This document shows positions 20,557-52,883 of a DNA stretch of 64,000 nucleotides, piece after piece (position 1 is the first letter of the stretch; each line of letters opens with the position of its first letter). The translations under genes and the position numbers were made by a program. Location: positions 21,329 to 85,328 of the IMG/VR virus record IMGVR_UViG_3300031576_000023; one strand, written 5' to 3'. The notes under the pieces were generated by a model. It was not told the origin of the DNA, did no database searches, and saw nothing but the letters and a program-made list of their open reading frames with translations. The stretch comes from a virus.

Positions 20557-21606
20557 ATGAACGCGATGCTGCAAGTAGCTGACTGCGGGCCACTGGAAAG
20601 CCTGGCGACGATGTTCCGCGCGATCGGATGGGATTGCTTCGTGCCAGACGCGGGCTTGCGGGCGCGGCTCGTGGCGGCCGGCTGCGACACAGTCCTGGAC
20701 CCGGAGTTTCTGTTCAGAGAGATGGGCTACGACCGTCCGCGCGGCGTCCAGCAAAGCGGAGACCTCGACAGCATGGACCTGTACGTTGATGTCAAGGCGC
20801 AGCGCAACGCGGAAAAAGCCTGGAAGCTTCACCGGCGCTTCGAGGGTCGCACAATCTGGTATCGCATCAACGGCGGTCTGCCTGAAATAACTCCTCAAGG
20901 CGGGGACGAGCTGAACTTCAACTTTCCGATTATCACGCCGAACAGGTACTATCTCGACAGTCCCACGGCATACAAGAACCACGTCGGCTCTCGGCGGGAT
21001 GCGAACTGGGGTGGACTGGCCTACGTCATGTGGCCCCCTTTCGCGCGCGCCTCTGATTATTCTGTGCGCGCCCCGAATTACGACGGGTACTGCAATCCAG
21101 TCTGCTTGATCCACAACGTCACTGGCTGGGGGTACTCCGACCTCGTCGAGCCGCTTCGCCGAGAGGCCAGGCTGCTGTGCTTCGGGTCGCACGGCAGCCC
21201 GGACGGGCTTATCCCGCACAGCGGCGTCCCCGGACTTCTGGCCGCGGCGCTGTGCATGGTCCACCTCAAGAGCAACGACTGCCCAGGATACGCCCTCTAC
21301 GAGGCCCTGCATGCCGGCTGCCCGCTGATCGTTCCGCGCAGACTGATAAAGCGCATGCGGATGGCAGACCTGCTGGTGGAAGGCGCGACGTGCCTCTGCT
21401 TCGACATCGAGGGAGATGAGCGCGGGTGCGGCGCCCTCGACGTCGCGGCCTGCGTCGCCGAGGTCCGCGCTGCCACCAAGCAACTCATGGACTCGGCAGA
21501 GAACGAGCGAATCGGGAATGCCGGGAAGCGCGCGCTGGCCGAGCTGATATGGAATCCAGAGCGCGACGCAGAGTCGTTCAAGGCGTTTTTGCGCAGATAC
21601 GGTTGA
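20557..21606 (+). CDS. GT-B glycosyltransferase
   Basis: DCPGYALYEALHAGCPLI motif; ERIGNAGK. Confidence 0.7.
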   Translation: MNAMLQVADCGPLESLATMFRAIGWDCFVPDAGLRARLVAAGCDTVLDPEFLFREMGYDRPRGVQQSGDLDSMDLYVDVKAQRNAEKAWKLHRRFEGRTIWYRINGGLPEITPQGGDELNFNFPIITPNRYYLDSPTAYKNHVGSRRDANWGGLAYVMWPPFARASDYSVRAPNYDGYCNPVCLIHNVTGWGYSDLVEPLRREARLLCFGSHGSPDGLIPHSGVPGLLAAALCMVHLKSNDCPGYALYEALHAGCPLIVPRRLIKRMRMADLLVEGATCLCFDIEGDERGCGALDVAACVAEVRAATKQLMDSAENERIGNAGKRALAELIWNPERDAESFKAFLRRYG

Positions 21607-45555: not shown

Positions 45556-45629
45556 CCCAGCGGAGCGGGGCAGGCTCCGCGCGACACTAGGGGCAGGTCG
45601 CGCGGGGCGAACATCACAGGAGACGGAGG

Positions 45630-46496
45630 ATGAACGCTAGCGAGCTAACGTTCGGGATCGAGGTGGAGTGCTACATCTCGCGGGAGAATCTTCAGGCCGC
45701 CGGCTGGGAGGTCGGCGGCTACCACAACGGCCGCGAGATTCCTGATTTTGTGGGGTGGAACGCTCAGCGCGACAGCAGCCTGAACAGCCCCCCCAGCTAC
45801 GAGCTGGCAGGGGTCGAAGTAGTATCTGGGGTTCTGACGGGGGCGGAAGGGCTAGCGGAAGTGCGGCGGATGCTCGCGACCCTCCAGAGGATGGGGGCGA
45901 AAGTGAACCGCACGTGCGGGTTTCACGTGCATGTGGGGTTCGCGGGCCGCTCAGTCCAGGAGCTGCGGCGCTTGGTCTGCTTGGTCGCGAGCCATGAAGA
46001 GGCGTTGTACGCGGTTACCGGGAGTCGCGCCAGGCGCGATTCCTGCTACTGCAAATCGGTGAAGGACGGGGCGATGAATGGTTTTGCTCGCCCCGTGCGC
46101 AGTCACAGAGAGGCGTCTGGATGGTGCGACAGGTTCCGCGTGCTGAACCTCACGAATCTGCTCGGAGACTCGGCCCGCAAGCCGACCGTGGAGTTCCGGG
46201 TGTTCGCGGGGACCACGAACGAGGTCAAGATATTGGGCTATATCCAGCTCTGCCTTGGACTGGTCTCGAAGGCTGTGGCGATGCGGTCGGCGGCGCCGTG
46301 GCATAGTAGACCGGTGCACAATAAGTCGCTTGCCGGTTACGGGCCGGGCCGCACTGCGGTGTCTAAATTGCTGTGGCAACTCGGCTGGCGAGGCGATGCG
46401 GCACACCATGGGGTGCTGGACTTGGCAGGCGTGGCGAAGACGAAGACGGAGTTGTATCGGCTCGCAAAGAAGTACGACAGCGGCAGCGAGGAGTAG
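45630..46496 (+). CDS. Amidoligase (COOH-NH2 ligase type 2)
   Basis: TFGIEVE, EVVS, CGFHVHVG and TVEFRVF motifs. Confidence 0.9.
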   Translation: MNASELTFGIEVECYISRENLQAAGWEVGGYHNGREIPDFVGWNAQRDSSLNSPPSYELAGVEVVSGVLTGAEGLAEVRRMLATLQRMGAKVNRTCGFHVHVGFAGRSVQELRRLVCLVASHEEALYAVTGSRARRDSCYCKSVKDGAMNGFARPVRSHREASGWCDRFRVLNLTNLLGDSARKPTVEFRVFAGTTNEVKILGYIQLCLGLVSKAVAMRSAAPWHSRPVHNKSLAGYGPGRTAVSKLLWQLGWRGDAAHHGVLDLAGVAKTKTELYRLAKKYDSGSEE

Positions 46497-46560
46497 CCGA
46501 AACGCCCGGCAACGGGCGTCGCCGTCCGGGTGGTCCCCGGCGGCCTGAAGAGGCAAACCA
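46496..46560 (+). ncRNA. Hammerhead ribozyme, type II
   Basis: GCC-GAAA-CGCCCG GCAA CGGGCG-TC(cut after 46520)-stem I-CTGAAGA-GGC; loop TGGT can pair with downstream ACCA. Confidence 0.9.
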
Positions 46561-46576
46561 ATCACAGGAGAAGCAT

Positions 46577-47254
46577 ATGTGTGGATTGTTCGGGTTCGTC
46601 GGGCTGGCGCCCGACGTTGGGAAACTCATTCAGATCGCGGAGGCGACCGCGAACGCGCGCGGCCGCGACGCCTGGGGAGTGGCGTGGGTGGACTGGCGGG
46701 GCCGGCTGCGGCACCACAAGGCCGCCGGCCAGCTTGACCGCCGCGCGCTGGCGGACGCGGCAGATGCCGTCGCGCTTATTGGGCACTGCCGATTGGCCAC
46801 GCATGGCGACCCGCGCGCCAACGAGAATAACCACCCGCATGCTTGCGACGGCGGCTGGCTGGTCCACAACGGCATGCTCCGACAGCATTGGAGCACGGCG
46901 ATAGAGCACGGTCTGCGGCTCACGACGGAGTGCGACAGCGAGCTACTGGCTCGGCTGATCGAGGTAGCCGAGGCCGACGACCGCTGCGAGCAGGTGTCCT
47001 GGGCGATCGAGACGGCCCTCGGCGACAGCGGCATGCCGTGCGCGGTGATGGCCCTCTGGCGGGACCAGCTCGTGATCGCGCGGGCAGGGAACCCGCTGGC
47101 GCGGAGCAAGCAGCGCGAGGGGACGTACATCGCCAGCCTGGCGGAGTACCTGCCAGGCTGCGGCGAGTCGTACCCTGACTGGGAGGTGGATACGATTCCG
47201 GTGCCCCAGCCGACAGCCAAGAATGGCAGGAGTCGTAGCCGTGCCGCATCCTGA
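46577..47254 (+). CDS. Class II (Ntn) glutamine amidotransferase
   Basis: N-terminal MCGLFG; GHCRLAT, HNG and CDSE motifs. Confidence 0.9.
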   Translation: MCGLFGFVGLAPDVGKLIQIAEATANARGRDAWGVAWVDWRGRLRHHKAAGQLDRRALADAADAVALIGHCRLATHGDPRANENNHPHACDGGWLVHNGMLRQHWSTAIEHGLRLTTECDSELLARLIEVAEADDRCEQVSWAIETALGDSGMPCAVMALWRDQLVIARAGNPLARSKQREGTYIASLAEYLPGCGESYPDWEVDTIPVPQPTAKNGRSRSRAAS

Positions 47255-47654
47255 CAGCTACCCCAGAACAGTTGCCGAAGTCCTCGACGCCCGCGCGACG
47301 TACACTGCCGGGTGCCTGCGTGTAATGAGGAGGTTCAGGATGTCGCGGCCGTGGCATGGCAGCCAGGCCGCGAGGAGGCGGAAGTTCCGCCGGCTGCACG
47401 AGGCCCTCTGTCGGGTGTACGGGGTACGGGCACAGCTTGTATTCGGCGGATGGTATTCGCGCTACTGGATCGCGGAGCGCGCTATCCACCTGGCCGAGCT
47501 GTCCGTCGTGACCTACCTGCACGAGTTTGCGCACGCTCGCGGATGGCGCGAGCGGCAGGCGTGCAGGTGGTCGATCAACCTGTTCCGCCGTGTGTTTCCG
47601 CGCGAGTTCGCGCGGTGTAGGCGCGACGGACATGTGTTGCGCAAGAGGCGATGA
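47223..47654 (+). CDS. HExxH zincin-like protein
   Basis: VVTYLHEFAH motif. Confidence 0.55.
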   Translation: MAGVVAVPHPDSYPRTVAEVLDARATYTAGCLRVMRRFRMSRPWHGSQAARRRKFRRLHEALCRVYGVRAQLVFGGWYSRYWIAERAIHLAELSVVTYLHEFAHARGWRERQACRWSINLFRRVFPREFARCRRDGHVLRKRR

Positions 47655-47736
47655 ATCGATTACGCCCGCTCATGCGGGGCAGGCTCCGCGCGGTAGGGAC
47701 AGCTGCGCGGGGCGGATCAACATAGGAGAAACCGAA

Positions 47737-48081
47737 ATGACCACCCAAGAAACGCTGGAGCGCAGCTTTCGGCATCTGAATAGATCGCAAATCGAGAACC
47801 TCGTGTGGCACGTCCATGCGGGAACTCCGATATGTTGCGGGGATGACGCACATCTTTTCTCGTCTGCGGAGGGTGGTGGATGACCAGCCCTGTTGGCGTG
47901 CACCCGTGTGGTGCCCAGGATTCAAATTGGTGCAGATGAACCAGTCCAGCGCGAGTGGAACGACGCCTTAAAAACCTTGGCGGGCGCGGACAAATATGAA
48001 TACATGGCTAGCCTGTACCGGGCCGACCAAGATACAGTCCGGCAAGCAATTGGTGCCGTCGCCTCTACGCTGACCACCTAG
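47737..48081 (+). CDS. Candidate selenoprotein paralog 1 (UGA at codon 49)
   Basis: In-frame TGA 47881-47883 in GGG*P; homology with paralogs continues past it; hairpin 47900-47914. Confidence 0.75.
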
Positions 48082-48290
48082 CAGCCGTGTTCGCGCCGCG
48101 CGCGGCGGCTGATGCGGCTCGCAACACTGTCTTCGTGGCGGCGTGTGGAGTCTGGCGTGACGCACTGGACGCAGCAAAACCAGTCAAACAAGCGACGTAG
48201 CGGGACTCACTTTTCCGCCGCGAGCGGAGCGGGCAGGCTCCGCGCGACACGAGGCAGGGTGCGCTGGGCAAAATCTAAAGGGAGAAAAAC

Positions 48291-48497
48291 ATGCAAGATT
48301 CTCGATACGACGCGCGATGCGATGGGCTGCACGAATCGTGCGGCCACTCGCATAGAACAATTGCGCCGGCGCAACGGTGCGCCCGCAAAATGTTTCGGAA
48401 GCACGTCGCAGCCAACAATGGCACCGGATCATTCGTCGTGCGGGTTGTTCGGTATGTGCGGACATCATCAGACGATTGGGAGAGGTCAAGTTACTAG
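48291..48497 (+). CDS. Hypothetical protein
   Basis: GGGAG RBS. Confidence 0.5.
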   Translation: MQDSRYDARCDGLHESCGHSHRTIAPAQRCARKMFRKHVAANNGTGSFVVRVVRYVRTSSDDWERSSY

Positions 48498-48559
48498 CGG
48501 GGTACACCACAGGGGCAGACTCCGCGCGCCACGGGGCATTAAAGAAAAGAGGGTACAAA

Positions 48560-48763
48560 ATGCAATTCGTAAGGCGAACAGAGGCTCGGCGGCGCAAGCT
48601 ACTTGGCATCAACTTGACGGAGCAGGAGTGCGCAGCGGTGGACAGCGAAGCCAAGCATCTCGGTGTTACGCGGTCGGATTTCGTTCGCACGCTCCTGGAG
48701 GAATATTTCCAGGACGCGAAGGCGGGGCGCGCGGCCTCGAAGGCGGTGCTCGATGCGCGCTAG
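48560..48763 (+). CDS. Ribbon-helix-helix (CopG-like) regulator
   Basis: GINLTEQE...AKHLGVTRSDFVRTLL pattern. Confidence 0.65.
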   Translation: MQFVRRTEARRRKLLGINLTEQECAAVDSEAKHLGVTRSDFVRTLLEEYFQDAKAGRAASKAVLDAR

Positions 48764-49055
48764 CAGTGCGATCGAATATGTCTACGACTGCGACGACGGA
48801 CGAGAGGTCCGATGCGTCGTCCACTATCGCTGGTCGCCGCCGGAGCAGCGCACCTGGCACTACCCAGGTTCGCCAGCGGAAGTGTCGGTGGTGTCTGTGC
48901 GGGCGGTGGCAGTTCGTGAGAATGGCGCGGTGCGCGAGCCTGACCTGGAGGAGCAAGAGGAGATCGAGGCCAAGGTCGCCATCCGGGCCGCCGACTACGA
49001 CTCGGAGCTGTATCGGGACATCGTGGGGCAGGCGACGGCCGTGTACGAGGACTAA
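48753..49055 (+). CDS. Hypothetical phage protein
   Basis: TWHYPGSPAE motif; acidic C-terminus. Confidence 0.5.
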   Translation: MRASSAIEYVYDCDDGREVRCVVHYRWSPPEQRTWHYPGSPAEVSVVSVRAVAVRENGAVREPDLEEQEEIEAKVAIRAADYDSELYRDIVGQATAVYED

Positions 49056-49094
49056 TCACAGGAGACTTACCATGCGCGGAAAGGCGGTGCGCTT

Positions 49095-49403
49095 ATGACC
49101 GCTATGGACATCGCACAGTACCTGGACGAGGTCGAGCGCCGCTGGCGCAGCAGGACGCCCGCGCGGACGGTCAACGACGTGGACGCCGGTAGCCGCGTGA
49201 CGCGCGGCGAGATGCGCACGTGGTGCAGAGTCAACGGCATCGCGTTCGTGGAGATGGACGAGGAGGACTCCCAAGTCCCGCTGACGCGCTTGATGATGCG
49301 GCTGCGGCGGGAGTTTCCCGGCGAGCGCTGGGGGTATTTGAACTGCGCCACGGTTGACATGTGCCGCCGGCACAAGATCGTGGTCCCCAAAACCAGGGGG
49401 TAA
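49095..49403 (+). CDS. Hypothetical protein
   Basis: ORF in operon. Confidence 0.5.
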   Translation: MTAMDIAQYLDEVERRWRSRTPARTVNDVDAGSRVTRGEMRTWCRVNGIAFVEMDEEDSQVPLTRLMMRLRREFPGERWGYLNCATVDMCRRHKIVVPKTRG

Positions 49404-49419
49404 AATTTGCCCAACAGGC

Positions 49420-49448
49420 GTTGCGTGCCACGCAACACACGGTAAAAT
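49420..49448 (+). promoter_or_regulatory. Promoter with overlapping palindromic operator
   Basis: TTGCGT-N16-TAAAAT; palindrome GTTGCGTG-C-CACGCAAC at 49420-49436. Confidence 0.5.
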
Positions 49449-49652
49449 AGAGCTTGTCATCCGACAGGCTGGCCGAACCGGTCGCGGCCTTTCGATCGAC
49501 CGGATCACAGGAGACAAGACGGTGGATCACAGAACGAGAACGACGCAGGCGGTAGAGAAGCGCCTCGCCGCACGGCAGAGGCGGGAGCAGCGTGACTGGC
49601 GGGTATTCTTCCGGGCATGGCGCGCGTACCTCCGGGCGAATGGCGGTGTCGA

Positions 49653-50138
49653 ATGACTGGGACAGCTACACTCACGCCACTGGAGTGCGCGGCTATTCGT
49701 TTGGCGTCGCGGCAGATCGAACAGGCCGCGAAGGGTTTGCAGCCAGGCCGTGGTCAGCGGATAGACCTGGTACTGCGACTAGAGGGCATGCTCAATCGCG
49801 GCGAAGACGGAGTGTCGCAGCGGAAGACCCCTCCAGCTTGCCAGGACATGCTGGCCTGGCTGCTGTCCAGGATGAGCGTGCCGGCGCGCGACAAGCTCAT
49901 GGACGACTACGTCGCGCACTGCCAGAAGCACGGCGCGCCGAGCACCGAGGACGCGGACGCGACGGCGCGTGCCCGCCAGATGGCAGATGTTGGCTCGACG
50001 ACCCAGACATTCCCCAGGGCCGGCGCGCTGACCGGCAGTATCACGCTGGCGGTGATCGACACCACCAGCCTCAAGCCCCAGGCAATCAGGCAGCTCGCTG
50101 AGTGCTCCCGGATGATTAGCCTGGAGGAGGGCGAGTGA
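49653..50138 (+). CDS. Hypothetical protein
   Basis: ORF with coupled start/stop overlaps. Confidence 0.5.
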   Translation: MTGTATLTPLECAAIRLASRQIEQAAKGLQPGRGQRIDLVLRLEGMLNRGEDGVSQRKTPPACQDMLAWLLSRMSVPARDKLMDDYVAHCQKHGAPSTEDADATARARQMADVGSTTQTFPRAGALTGSITLAVIDTTSLKPQAIRQLAECSRMISLEEGE

Positions 50139-50544
50139 TGGAAAAGCTCATCCTGCTGTGGCCTAAGCGCCCACGAGTTATCCAGCGCGGGGGGAGCGTG
50201 CACCGTGAGTGGCGGACCAAGTGCGGCCGGTACTGCGTGAGCCGGCACTACTGCGAGCTGGCGAGTCTGCCGACGCGGTACATGCCGATGATGCGCACAG
50301 TTCACGGGTTGGTGCCGTTGCGGCGCAATAAATCGCCGCGCGCGATAATCCGCCGCAGGACGTGGCGACTGGCGATGCTGGACTGTGTCCGGCACGTCAG
50401 AAAGCAAGCCCGCTCGGAGCGGGCTGAGGCACGGATGCGTAAGGACGGCGCGGCGCGCGGTAGGCGCGTCTGCTTTTCCACGTCGCGAGTGCGGCGGAGT
50501 GGATTGACAGGTCGCGCGGGGCGGACAACACAGGAGACAGGATA

Positions 50545-50919
50545 ATGACTACCCAAGAAACGCTGGAGTGCTGCTTTTCTCGCCTGAGCGACTTGCAAAT
50601 CGAGAACCTACTGTGGCACGTTAACGCAGCGACTCCAATCTGCTGTGGGCAAGACGCACATCTTTTCGCCTCTGCGGACGGTGGTGGATGACCAGCACTG
50701 TTGGCCAGCACCCGTGAGGTGCCCCGCGTCCGCCTGGATTCACACTCACATGGACGAATCATGGATAAATGGCGAAACGCCCTGACAATCTTGATGGCGT
50801 CTGGAAATTACATGCGCAGCTTGTGCTTAGCCGACGAGCAAACCGTCCGCCAAGCAATTTCGGCCGCCGCGAGCGCGGCTGGGCGGATTGAAACTAGTCC
50901 AGCAGCGAAACAAAAATGA
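50545..50919 (+). CDS. Candidate selenoprotein paralog 2 (UGA at codon 49)
   Basis: In-frame TGA 50689-50691; hairpin 50708-50722; absent as a full ORF from the supplied track. Confidence 0.75.
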
Positions 50920-50931
50920 AGGGAAAGGAAA

Positions 50932-51288
50932 ATGACCACCCAAGAAACACTGGAGTATTGTTTTTCCTGCCTGAGCGATCAGAAAAGCGAGAACCTACTG
51001 TGGCACGTCGAAGCAGGGACTCCAATATGCTGCGGCGACGACTCATATCTTTACACCGATGGGGCGGGTGGAGGCTGACCGACTGTACTCGCCTGCACCC
51101 GTGCGGTGCCCCGCAAACGAAGCCTGTCGGACGGCCCAGTCCTGGACTCGTGGAACGACACAATAGAAAGCCTAAAGCCATCTACGTGCCCATCTGTGTA
51201 CATGGAAGCCTTGTACCGCGCCGACGAGGAGACAGTCCGGCGAGCAATTGTGGCCGCCGTCAAAGCAAAGCGCGACGGGACGGATTGA
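50932..51288 (+). CDS. Candidate selenoprotein paralog 3 (UGA at codon 49)
   Basis: In-frame TGA 51076-51078; hairpin 51095-51109. Confidence 0.75.
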
Positions 51289-51389
51289 AACATGGAGCGG
51301 CTAGGAGCCGTGTTTGACGGATCGAAGCGTGGTCGGCGCCTGGTCGAACCGGGCGCCGGCCTTTTCAAACCCATCACAGGGAGACGAAC

Positions 51390-52883
51390 ATGCTTACCGA
51401 GGTTTTCACGCGGGCCAAGAAACGGTCTGTCCCGCTAGTGCTGGTTGTAACCCCGGACCCGGCCGCCACGGTCCGAGAGCTGTGCACGACCCTGAACGGG
51501 GACGCCCAGGCTGTCTGCTGGGACCTGGTGCGCGGCCTGCACGAGCCGCCGATCACCTACGGGCTGGCGGACAAGCTGCGCGGCGGCGCGGAGGACGAGA
51601 CGTTGTTTGCGCCGGTAGCATTCGCGCAGGTGATCCGCAAAATGCCTGCGCACGGCGTGGCGTTCGGGTTGCAATTCGACCGCTACCTGCACGGACAGGA
51701 CGCGGCCGGCGTCACTCAAGCAGTTTGGAACCTGCGGGATCAGTTCAAGCAGGACGAGCGGATGCTGGTCATGCTGTGCTCTGACGGGAAGCTGCCGGTC
51801 GAACTCAAAAACGACGTGCTCGTGCTGGACGAACCATTGCCGAACGAAGCGCAGCTCAAAGCGGTCGTGACAAGCTTGTGCAAGGCCGCGAAAAAGGCCA
51901 GCACTACGTTCGCGGCGACGCCTGACGACATTGCCAGGGCTGCCGTGCGCGTCACCGGGCTGTCGCAGTTCGCGGCCGAGCAGGCGGTGGCCATGAGCCT
52001 GCGCGCCGGCGGTATCGACCAGGACGATCTGTGGGCGAGGAAACGGAAGCTCATCGAGGCAACGCCCGGCCTGGCGGTCTACGGCGGCGAGGAGCACTTT
52101 GGCGACCTGCGCGGCGTCGATAACGTCACGGGCTACCTGCGGCGCGTGATCGACGGGAAGCGCAGCCCAAATGTTATCGTCATGGTGGACGAGATCGAGA
52201 AGGCCCTGGCCGGCGCGCACGGCGACACGTCCGGCGTTTCCCAGGGTCAGTTGCAGTGCCTGCTGACGGAGATGCAGGATCAGAGCTATCCAGGCTGTAT
52301 ATTCATCGGGCCGCCTGGCAGCGGCAAGTCGATGGTCTCGAAGGCTGCCGGCAACGAGGCCGGCGTTCCGACGATCCTGTTCGACCTGAACGGGATGAAG
52401 GACTCGCTGGTTGGAGCCAGCGAGCGGAACATGCGCGACGCGCTGAAGGTCGTGCGCGCCGTCGGGGACGGCAAGGCGCTTTGGCTGGCGACGTGCAATG
52501 AGATCACCCAGTTGCCGAGCGCGCTGCGCCGGCGGTACACGCTCGGCACGTTCTTTTTCGACCTGCCGACGGGGGCGGAGCGCAAGGCGATCTGGGAGCT
52601 GTACCTCGGCCGGTACGATCTTGCGAAGGACCAGAGGGCCAAGCGGCCGGATGACGAGGGCTGGACCGGTGCCGAGATCAAGCAGTGCTGCGACAACGCC
52701 TGGGCGCTCGGTGTGACGCTTAAAGAGTCGGCCGGGTACGTGGTGCCGATCGTCAAGAGCGCGGCTACGGAGATCAGGCGCCTGCGGCAGGAGGCCAGCG
52801 GCCGTTTTCTCTCGGCGAGCCAGCCTGGCGTCTATCAGTTCCGCGAGAACGAGCAGGACGGGCAACGTGGCATTACGATGTAG
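51390..52883 (+). CDS. Ycf46-like AAA+ ATPase with Walker B block placed before Walker A block
   Basis: VIVMVDEIEK precedes GPPGSGKS; ATCN sensor 1, FFFDLP and GWTGAEIK follow. Confidence 0.85.
   Translation: MLTEVFTRAKKRSVPLVLVVTPDPAATVRELCTTLNGDAQAVCWDLVRGLHEPPITYGLADKLRGGAEDETLFAPVAFAQVIRKMPAHGVAFGLQFDRYLHGQDAAGVTQAVWNLRDQFKQDERMLVMLCSDGKLPVELKNDVLVLDEPLPNEAQLKAVVTSLCKAAKKASTTFAATPDDIARAAVRVTGLSQFAAEQAVAMSLRAGGIDQDDLWARKRKLIEATPGLAVYGGEEHFGDLRGVDNVTGYLRRVIDGKRSPNVIVMVDEIEKALAGAHGDTSGVSQGQLQCLLTEMQDQSYPGCIFIGPPGSGKSMVSKAAGNEAGVPTILFDLNGMKDSLVGASERNMRDALKVVRAVGDGKALWLATCNEITQLPSALRRRYTLGTFFFDLPTGAERKAIWELYLGRYDLAKDQRAKRPDDEGWTGAEIKQCCDNAWALGVTLKESAGYVVPIVKSAATEIRRLRQEASGRFLSASQPGVYQFRENEQDGQRGITM

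Follow-up and report, generated by a model that had tools for sequence, protein, structure and literature searches.

The prototype of bacterial selenoprotein genes is E. coli fdhF, which carries within its open reading frame a SECIS element read by SelB. The bacterial element has been modelled, as far as the available portion of PMC13188914 (Fig 2 legend) describes it, as a stem of at least 4 bp with a loop of 3-9 nt, a G as the first or second base of the loop (the next base being mostly G or U) and a spacing of 16-37 nt; an energy cut-off of -7.5 kcal/mol is given in the same available text. Regarding viruses, the accessible part of the recoding review PMC8310308 names a single kind of selenoprotein, the poxvirus glutathione peroxidase (GPx), present in molluscum contagiosum and fowlpox, with the fowlpox SECIS lying in the coding region. 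The hypothetical selenoprotein families GOS_A, GOS_B and GOS_C were derived from ocean metagenomes, according to the excerpt at hand of PMC2398784. From the portion of PMC1794560 available, Cys homologs can retain remnant SECIS-like structures (section 9), and an excess of UGA forms over Cys forms is unusual for selenoprotein families. Our literature search, which left the supplementary alignments of selenoproteome studies outside its scope, found no report of a phage-encoded selenoprotein, and the words phage and virus are absent from the available text of PMC13188914, PMC13326102, PMC12013277 and PMC2398784, one of which has a single generic 'viral'.

We have examined a 64,000-nucleotide stretch of an uncultured virus (the window; positions 21,329 to 85,328 of IMG/VR record IMGVR_UViG_3300031576_000023), and we consider it likely that three of its genes belong to a previously unnamed Sec/Cys family of about 110-125 aa from uncultured phages, in which UGA is read as selenocysteine (Sec) via a bacterial-type SECIS. 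There are no selenium data, and the host is unidentified. The features, numbered along the window, are given below; paralog lengths are those of the ORF translation with TGA read as U, and E-values come from a six-frame scan with the family HMM.

47737..48081, + strand: paralog 1, read-through product of 114 aa with U49; stop TAG; E 5.5e-35
47881..47883, + strand: in-frame TGA of paralog 1, codon 49, candidate Sec codon
47900..47914, + strand: hairpin of paralog 1, GCACC-CGUGU-GGUGC; stem of 5 bp, loop of 5 nt starting 21 nt after UGA, -6.1 kcal/mol
50545..50919, + strand: paralog 2, read-through product of 124 aa with U49; stop TGA; E 3.9e-33
50689..50691, + strand: in-frame TGA of paralog 2, codon 49
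50708..50722, + strand: hairpin of paralog 2, GCACC-CGUGA-GGUGC; -6.3 kcal/mol
50932..51288, + strand: paralog 3, read-through product of 118 aa with U49; stop TGA; E 6.2e-36
51076..51078, + strand: in-frame TGA of paralog 3, codon 49
51095..51109, + strand: hairpin of paralog 3, GCACC-CGUGC-GGUGC; -6.4 kcal/mol

The original prediction described this locus accurately: the three paralogs start MTTQETLE, TGA falls at exactly codon 49 of each, homology continues in frame past it, an identical hairpin (GCACC-CGTGN-GGTGC) follows 16 nt after each TGA, and the products have the foreseen sizes of 114-124 aa. The other two copies are 58% and 53% identical to paralog 1, and the alignment of the three contains 50 invariant columns spanning both halves, including E20-N-L, W24-H-V, T30-P-I-C-C-G, G46-G-G-U-P, T56-R, V59-P-R, Y89-M and T100-V-R; the context of U49 is GGG-U-P in 3/3. 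A ribosome-binding site, AGGAG-like or AGGAAA, is present for each paralog. A motif search of both strands of the whole 85,328-bp genome located GCACCCGTGNGGTGC only three times, at window positions 47900, 50708 and 51095, and in each paralog it begins 16 nt past the last base of the TGA.

To place these genes in a family, a protein profile search was used; it returned 176 cluster representatives at E<=1e-3, and residues were counted in the best 150 of the 176. Short representatives (limit 75 aa, actual range 46-73 aa) accounted for 81 of those 150 (one of them the window's own fragment), and 71 of the 81 stop exactly one column before U49, in keeping with the expectation that gene callers split or miss such genes, although for the 80 non-window short forms a TGA is presumed from position alone. 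The original prediction had proposed a search for homologs with Cys at position 49, and Cys occupies that column in 36 of 60 non-window mid- or full-length representatives, with no verified TGG-encoded Trp. A 'Trp' was called in six, all from contigs of 755-1630 bp, and about 18 have Ser, Ala, Thr, Val, another residue or a gap; therefore, the residue at position 49 is not indispensable. As regards the 'Trp' calls, the 90%-identity cluster of one such form, P0126, includes an N-terminal piece of 50 aa that breaks off immediately ahead of the 'W' as well as 61-aa C-terminal pieces, these split pieces coming from 6-7 kb contigs. Since close copies of P0126 are divided at this codon, its 'W' most likely reflects translation of a TGA under code 4. 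TGA-type forms outnumber Cys-forms approximately 2 to 1, an excess that would require the Sec trait in many hosts. His25 is the sole residue kept in all members, with T30, G35, G46, C/U49 and P60 close to invariant, and the description of the products as 'Cys-rich' was in this respect overstated.

The family was also predicted to be an unrecognised one, and this proved correct: four family proteins gave nothing below E 0.1 against Pfam and PHROGs, and no fold match was obtained. A near-length word-index search returned the Cys-form P0006 as its sole match, and tblastn of one 'W' form and one Cys-form against 50,697 cultured-phage records gave no match. Pattern searches for related loci yielded 57 matches with none confirmed for the three paralogs, and 38 matches with none confirmed for five Cys-forms; the latter result leaves L015 as the only Cys-form DNA obtained. 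Several candidates were discarded. Three stretches matched in a pattern scan of a genome collection were all due to chance, and a profile search of those three genomes found no family member; when the profile was run on 401 genomes from a single phylum, two weak, incomplete matches emerged (E 2e-4 and 9e-4), whose translation looks like off-frame GC-rich sequence and is unconvincing; and nine long proteins from the profile search (802-4807 aa, several short stretches each), with one weak domain by the family HMM, were treated as unrelated Gly/Cys-rich repeats. Window phage and relatives' contigs share no conserved neighbour genes. A marine origin is possible for the contigs of type L001 and L002, as presumed from the accession prefix of L005.

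We then turned to the codon itself in the relatives' DNA. Patterns that left the position-49 codon unspecified made eight distinct non-window genes readable: the codon is TGA in seven of them (L001, L002, L003, L006, L008, L047 and L074) and TGT in one (L015), while TGG, TAA or TAG occurred in none of the eight. Four further genes (L120, L121, L154 and L170) were added by a TGA-biased pattern, so that the set of 14 distinct TGA-form genes comprises three from the window, seven from the unbiased and four from the TGA-biased search. In all 14, which come from independent samples, the aligned codon is TGA, the downstream frame is intact and in-frame homology reaches the C-terminus, although this evidence is comparative only and no protein data support it. 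The GC content of the relatives' contigs ranges from 38% to 66%. The P, A, L and A codons right after the TGA vary synonymously with the protein conserved, and the base following UGA is C in 14/14 (CCN, Pro).

A hairpin is present in all 14 TGA-form genes, its loop beginning 16-24 nt after the UGA. G is the first or second loop base in 14/14, and the next base is U in 13 genes and G in one, a loop motif of (N)G[U/G] carried on at least eight different stems. With the stems written as 5 bp, 67 of 70 cells are paired, and pairs 2-5 each appear as three or four standard pair types. As far as alignment can establish it, the hairpin is demonstrably conserved and covarying, with a conserved loop G-U. 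The prediction that it fits bacterial SECIS geometry was confirmed in 14/14 genes, all within the loop, stem, loop-G and spacing limits in the available part of PMC13188914, and the stems covary.

Could coding constraint alone account for the hairpin? In 1000 synonymous-codon resamples, a hairpin with dG <= -3 appeared in a mean of 1.37 of the 14 genes (maximum 5), compared with 11/14 observed; the summed hairpin dG was -98.7 observed versus -9.7 +/- 7.1 resampled, and the observed pattern was reproduced in 0/1000. Seven family genes (32-63% amino acid identity) carry a CACC/GGUG stem. In 15 columns all seven agree on an amino acid that has four to six codons; the codon is invariant in three of these columns only, the hairpin codons ACC, CGT and GTG, and the remaining 12 columns use 2-4 codons each. 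The hairpin alone is weak evidence, because one compatible with a simplified model of the bacterial SECIS follows 13.3% of the TGA triplets in the genome (n=2067; 3.3% at spacing 19-23).

The energies are modest. The hairpin alone reaches -7.5 kcal/mol or below in 5/14 genes; the 5-bp window copies lie at -6.1 to -6.4 kcal/mol and those of L001, L002 and L047, of 4 bp, at -2.9 kcal/mol; folding the entire 48 nt gives -9.5 to -12.7 kcal/mol for the window copies. Over the 36 nt after the UGA, the generic folding energy did not surpass that of synonymous resamples (p = 0.30). No Rfam family matched window positions 47000-52000 at E<=10; sequence-based models represent bacterial SECIS elements poorly. 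A strong hairpin also occurs in the Cys-form L015: 18 nt past its TGT codon, 10 bp enclose the loop GGUC (p = 0.009 versus resamples). This is either the vestige of a SECIS or an indication that the hairpin serves another purpose.

Sec insertion by host SelB is in our opinion the best reading of these data, and the original interpretation is supported in that every refuting condition open to sequence comparison came out in its favour; it has not been demonstrated, and both decoding by SelB/tRNA(Sec) and the host machinery are inferred. A ribosome on each paralog mRNA would reach UGA-49, and the stem-loop 16 nt downstream, within the coding sequence and with loop motif N-G-U, would act as a bacterial-type SECIS recruiting the host SelB-GTP-Sec-tRNA(Sec). 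UGA-49 would be decoded as selenocysteine and translation would go on in frame to a product predicted to form one compact, mostly helical domain; by inference, a share of ribosomes probably terminates and releases a 48-aa peptide. No phage-encoded Sec machinery was detected, as searches of the phage found neither a tRNA gene nor a SelB winged-helix match. The only host hint is a neighbouring ATPase with a 36.7% match to a Tunturiibacter (Acidobacteriota) phage; comparison of a 754-aa window protein with cultured phages gave no match and no second host hint. A look at sequencing runs yielded two DNA entries of one cave-metagenome study, of which one is possibly the source, and no RNA entry.

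The alternative that survives best, although we regard it as unlikely, is a programmed read-through independent of any SECIS, in which termination is delayed by the hairpin together with the UGA-C context, the UGA is decoded by tRNA-Trp or tRNA-Cys as a near-cognate codon, and the ratio of 48-aa peptide to full-length protein is set without selenium. Phage UGA read-through giving a longer product is known from the Q-beta A1 protein, and the C after UGA in every TGA-form gene, the short and weak hairpins, the persistence of a hairpin in L015 and the unverified Sec machinery of the host are all compatible with it. Reading by tRNA-Trp, however, predicts homologs with TGG-encoded Trp, of which none was verified, the six 'W' forms looking like code-4 gene calls. 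Reading by tRNA-Cys might be favoured by the tRNA-Cys(GCA) gene found on each of the TGA-form contigs L003 and L074, but its anticodon is the ordinary GCA. Moreover, the 36 Cys representatives form a classical Sec/Cys signature, and a loop G-U conserved at a fixed distance on covarying stems is unneeded for a simple roadblock; that arrangement is a recognition requirement of SelB.

Less probable still is that UGA is a true stop and that a 48-aa N-terminal peptide and a re-initiated C-terminal half are made separately and then assemble. Gene callers do yield such pieces (P0156 with P0157/P0158, for example), TTG or GTG codons follow the TGA in the window copies, and the G-rich Gly codons before it resemble a Shine-Dalgarno sequence. 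Yet there is no conserved start: the first in-frame ATG/GTG/TTG of copy 3 is placed differently from that of copies 1 and 2, and it differs again in L003, L006 and L074, the last having none within the first 19 codons. The P-A-x-L-A upstream of any such start is maintained at the protein level while its codons vary synonymously, Cys-forms are single ORFs, and the AlphaFold2 model of P0006 is one domain. Separately initiated downstream halves would have refuted the original prediction; the conserved P-A-x-L-A after TGA and the lack of a conserved start codon speak against them.

A phage-wide reassignment of TGA to Trp or Gly, decaying pseudogenes or assembly errors can hardly be sustained. GGG-TGA-P would read GGGGP under code 25 and six database entries have W at position 49, but TGA is the phage's main stop codon (32 of 48 plus-strand ORFs >=200 aa, and two of the three paralogs), and therefore, as had been anticipated, its genetic code is not reassigned. 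In the 38%-GC relative L008, TGG is used for Trp; of nine other ORFs examined there, six contain just one in-frame TGA, placed where the protein would naturally end, and in one it lies at a two-gene boundary. Moreover, 14 distinct genes, drawn from independent samples, share this TGA and keep an intact frame beyond it.

Returning to Sec insertion, the AlphaFold2 model of the Cys-form P0006 shows one confident domain over both halves (pLDDT 93.5, pTM 0.87). Foldseek against the PDB found no match at E<=1e-3, a wide structure comparison with VIA-align reached a best Z of 3.4, and Protein Atlas gave no usable feature match, its structure rows being hypothetical proteins with TM about 0.55. As to function, our best guess, inferred and of low confidence, is that Sec49 combines with the invariant His25 and with Cys34 close by in a site for selenol/thiol redox chemistry or for metal binding. 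With less assurance than for the family assignment, although still on balance in favour, we propose that phages carry a selenoprotein family whose fold resembles no solved structure, in which Sec rather than Cys is predominant and possibly ancestral and of which this phage retains three copies in its early region. An infecting phage would consequently both use and need the host SelB/tRNA(Sec) system, and the UGA-hairpin could switch between 48-aa peptide and full protein according to selenium supply.

If true, these findings extend selenocysteine decoding to bacteriophages, and a phage Sec gene would mark its host as a selenocysteine user. They also bear on annotation, since gene callers split or lose the genes of this family: more than half of its database entries are stubs of 46-73 aa and some carry a false Trp. 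In addition, the family offers a clean test case for minimal SECIS hairpins, with 4-8 bp and a conserved loop G-U.

Compared with known systems, the family resembles bacterial selenoprotein genes in its in-frame UGA aligned to Cys in homologs and in its in-ORF stem-loop just 3' of the UGA, and its UGA-to-loop spacing of 16-24 nt falls within the 16-37 nt of the model in the available part of PMC13188914. It differs from them in being carried by a phage with no Sec machinery of its own detected, in lacking a Pfam, PHROG, PDB-fold or Atlas relative, in the predominance of UGA over Cys forms and in its hairpins, many of which are shorter, and weaker than the energy cut-off, where the accessible text of PMC13188914 is the measure. 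The 10-bp hairpin of the Cys-form L015/P0006, a single example, is reminiscent of the remnant structures of Cys homologs in the portion of PMC1794560 at hand. Like GOS_A, GOS_B and GOS_C, as far as the excerpt of PMC2398784 presents them, this is an orphan Sec/Cys family found only in metagenomes, sequence identity between them being uncompared. With the poxvirus GPx, in the available text of PMC8310308, it shares being virus-encoded and, as we propose, relying on the Sec machinery of the host. Those poxviruses, on that partial account, infect eukaryotes, have acquired their GPx gene from a cell and use a SECIS of eukaryotic type, whereas here an orphan family with a bacterial-type hairpin is carried by a virus of bacteria.

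The phage record, an 85,328-bp genome with 127-bp direct terminal repeats and 62.4% GC whose final 64 kb form the window, carries three paralogous genes in which TGA occupies codon 49 (U49 when read as selenocysteine, Sec):

47737-48081, plus strand: paralog 1, ribosome-binding site upstream, TGA at codon 49, 114 aa when read through
50545-50919, plus strand: paralog 2, ribosome-binding site upstream, TGA at codon 49, 124 aa when read through
50932-51288, plus strand: paralog 3, ribosome-binding site upstream, TGA at codon 49, 118 aa when read through

Pairwise identity among the read-through proteins was 53-58%; 50 columns, spread before and after the TGA, were invariant. Genome-wide, the 15-mer GCACCCGTGNGGTGC has three copies, each located 16 nt after the TGA of a paralog. 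The original prediction, which described three ORFs with TGA at codon 49, homology past the TGA and a hairpin 16 nt further on, proved accurate in every detail checked. Paralogs 1 and 2 have similar 5′ leaders (window 47700-47736 and 50508-50544), reading GCGCGGGGCGGA..AACA.AGGAGA, and therefore the ribosome-binding region was part of the duplication; paralog 3 begins 12 nt after paralog 2 and has a different, weaker site.

A near-length search returned a single relative, the cluster representative P0006 (111 aa, E 6e-15), an uninterrupted protein whose GGA-C-P aligned to the GGG-U-P of the window. A profile built from the three paralogs and P0006 was scored against 1.84 billion representatives, giving 176 matches at E<=1e-3, 26 of them at E<=1e-10. 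Among the best 150 of the 176 matches, 81 were no longer than 75 aa (actual lengths 46-73 aa, the window's own fragment included). As many as 71 of these ended exactly at the column before U49, and the remaining ten ended within three columns of that border, bar one outlier. Another 60 measured 76-260 aa and presented Cys (36), Trp (6) or, in about 18 cases, Ser, Ala, Thr, Val, another residue or a gap in the U column. Nine long proteins giving weak repeated matches were regarded as unrelated. Over 32 aligned members, His25 was invariant and L14, L22, T30, G35, G46, C/U49, P60 and L93 nearly so, while the second Cys of the 'CC' motif was common, yet not universal.

DNA loci of relatives (L-handles) were fetched with patterns that rest on the N-terminal motif alone (WH-x4-TPICCG) or that allow any TGN at the codon, and chance matches were removed by the family HMM. 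Counting the same gene once (L001 = L010 = L011; L002 = L004 = L005) and leaving out L016, whose sequence ends before the site, these patterns yielded eight distinct readable genes: L001, L002, L003, L006, L008, L047 and L074 with TGA, and L015, the DNA of P0006, with TGT. A pattern demanding TGA added L120, L121, L154 and L170. The contigs ranged from 38% to 72% GC and, in every case, the frame after the TGA was open and homologous to the family C-terminal motif Y..AL...(D/E)..VR.AI.

All 14 TGA-form genes (the three window copies and 11 relatives) presented a stem-loop whose loop begins 16-24 nt past the UGA, built from at least eight different stems.

Stems of the hairpins after the UGA
GCACC: window copies, L008, L154
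CACC: L001, L002, L047
GCCGC: L003
CUGUC: L006
CGGCC: L074
CCGCC: L120
UGCCG: L121
CCGAC: L170

The loops were CGUGN, GGUC, AGUUAA, CGGCG, UGUAA, UGUGA and UGUCA; all 14 have G at position 1 or 2, and the next base is U in 13 genes and G in one. In a 5-bp stem layout 67 of 70 cells pair, and pairs 2-5 each use 3-4 standard pair types. In loop, stem, loop-G and spacing, these hairpins stay within the limits published for bacterial SECIS elements (PMC13188914, Fig 2 legend). At L170:6613-6940 (plus strand), a divergent member keeps the TGA, with an 8-bp hairpin and loop CGUGU, and reads TPIIHD where others have 'TPICCG'; that motif has no Cys, so Sec there would lack a nearby Cys partner.

The mere presence of a hairpin says little, since in this GC-rich genome a model-like one follows 13.3% of TGA triplets overall. 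Generic folding energy after the UGA showed no advantage over synonymous-codon resamples (p = 0.30). We defined a specific element (loop (N)G[G/U], spacing 16-24, dG <= -3) by criteria chosen post hoc, though narrower versions of published ones. This element was found in 11/14 genes, the other three scoring -2.9, and stands out against synonymous resamples (mean 1.37/14, maximum 5 in 1000). Independently of this count, the CACC/GGUG stem is common to seven divergent genes, whose only invariant codons are the stem-building ACC, CGT and GTG; each of the remaining 12 columns that can be compared has 2-4 codons. In the Cys-form locus, L015:13703-13760 (metagenome contig Ga0196964_10001146), a 10-bp hairpin with loop GGUC lies 18 nt after the TGT codon and is significantly stronger than synonymous resamples (p = 0.009; beats 99%). 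Former selenoproteins can keep remnant SECIS-like structures after their Cys codons (PMC1794560), and by analogy this hairpin may be a remnant SECIS; L015 being the lone Cys-form example, a hairpin serving something else cannot be excluded.

The proposal that these are selenoproteins is supported by the Cys homologs, the use of TGA as a usual stop and the fit to SECIS constraints, and we consider it likely that the UGAs encode Sec via the host SelB/SECIS mechanism. Against this count the members with neither Cys nor UGA at the site, the absence of any detected tRNA gene or encoded SelB-wing domain in the phage genome, the weakness of the window hairpins taken alone, and the hairpin of the Cys-form L015. 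Also, UGA-type forms outnumber Cys-forms in the family, the reverse of most selenoprotein families according to PMC1794560. Read-through of the UGA without selenium remains conceivable, although we judge it improbable. The small remainder is shared by a split gene, code reassignment and decay; reassignment is opposed by TGA ending 32 of the 48 plus-strand ORFs >=200 aa in the window's genome and by the 38%-GC L008 phage, which is not recoded, because Trp is encoded by TGG and a single in-frame TGA marks the natural C-terminal end in 6/9 other ORFs examined and a boundary of two genes in 1/9. As for the host, the sole hint is the neighbouring AAA ATPase, a 36.7% match to a Tunturiibacter (Acidobacteriota) phage; one Sec-using Acidobacteriota species appears in a table of PMC12013277, so that such a host is possible, no more.

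Gene callers tend to pick code 4 for short contigs. The contigs behind the six Trp-form entries (P0017, P0018, P0038, P0041, P0053 and P0126) are all 755-1630 bp long. P0126 shares its 90%-identity cluster with a 50-aa protein that is identical to residues 1-50 of P0126 and stops just before the W, and with 61-aa proteins identical to its C-terminus, both derived from 6-7 kb contigs; a TGA called as Trp on a short contig would produce this picture. Where public protein sets show Trp at the Sec position, it is probably TGA translated under code 4, an annotation artefact able to hide Sec/Cys pairs.

Pfam, PHROGs, Foldseek/PDB, VIA-align and the protein Atlas gave no relative of the family. The AlphaFold2 model of P0006 is one confident domain (pLDDT 93.5) with helices from both halves; as to function, we can only guess at a selenol/thiol redox or metal site. 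The window genes lie among small early-region ORFs, with a GATase_6-domain protein upstream and an AAA ATPase downstream. The former (46373-47254, plus strand; class-II glutamine amidotransferase domain, E 4.5e-8) is an uncommon gene for a phage early region. The 15-mer GGCAG(G/A)CTCCGCGCG has four exact or near-exact copies in the window:

45569-45583, plus strand: GGCAG(G/A)CTCCGCGCG copy
47678-47692, plus strand: GGCAG(G/A)CTCCGCGCG copy
48232-48246, plus strand: GGCAG(G/A)CTCCGCGCG copy
48514-48528, plus strand: GGCAG(G/A)CTCCGCGCG copy

Small early genes, paralog 1 among them, start 47-61 nt downstream of each copy; with up to 2 mismatches allowed, 5 matches occur where chance alone would give 1.9, and a role as phage promoter or operator is possible. 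Relatives' contigs encode a PD-(D/E)XK nuclease, AAA_24 ATPase, trypsin-like peptidase and DUF1064, which are phage replication or early modules; the window phage and these contigs have only the family gene in common. On TGA-form contigs, tRNA-Cys(GCA) genes at L003:698-769 and L074:2432-2505 (both minus strand) follow the family gene 2.6-3.4 kb further downstream and, given their ordinary anticodon and 72-74 nt length, are not tRNA-Sec. In the L002-type contigs the family gene is directly preceded by a tRNA-Leu(TAA) gene (L002:8937-9008, minus strand; also in L004 and L005).

A literature search that did not cover supplements and figures found no phage selenoprotein; we cannot exclude that some marine members are already listed in the 'hypothetical' metagenomic families of PMC2398784. 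Compared with an ordinary bacterial selenoprotein gene, the genes described here look mechanistically alike; they differ, and are new, in being carried by phages, in forming an orphan family without a known fold, in occurring as three copies in one genome and in the predominance of UGA forms.
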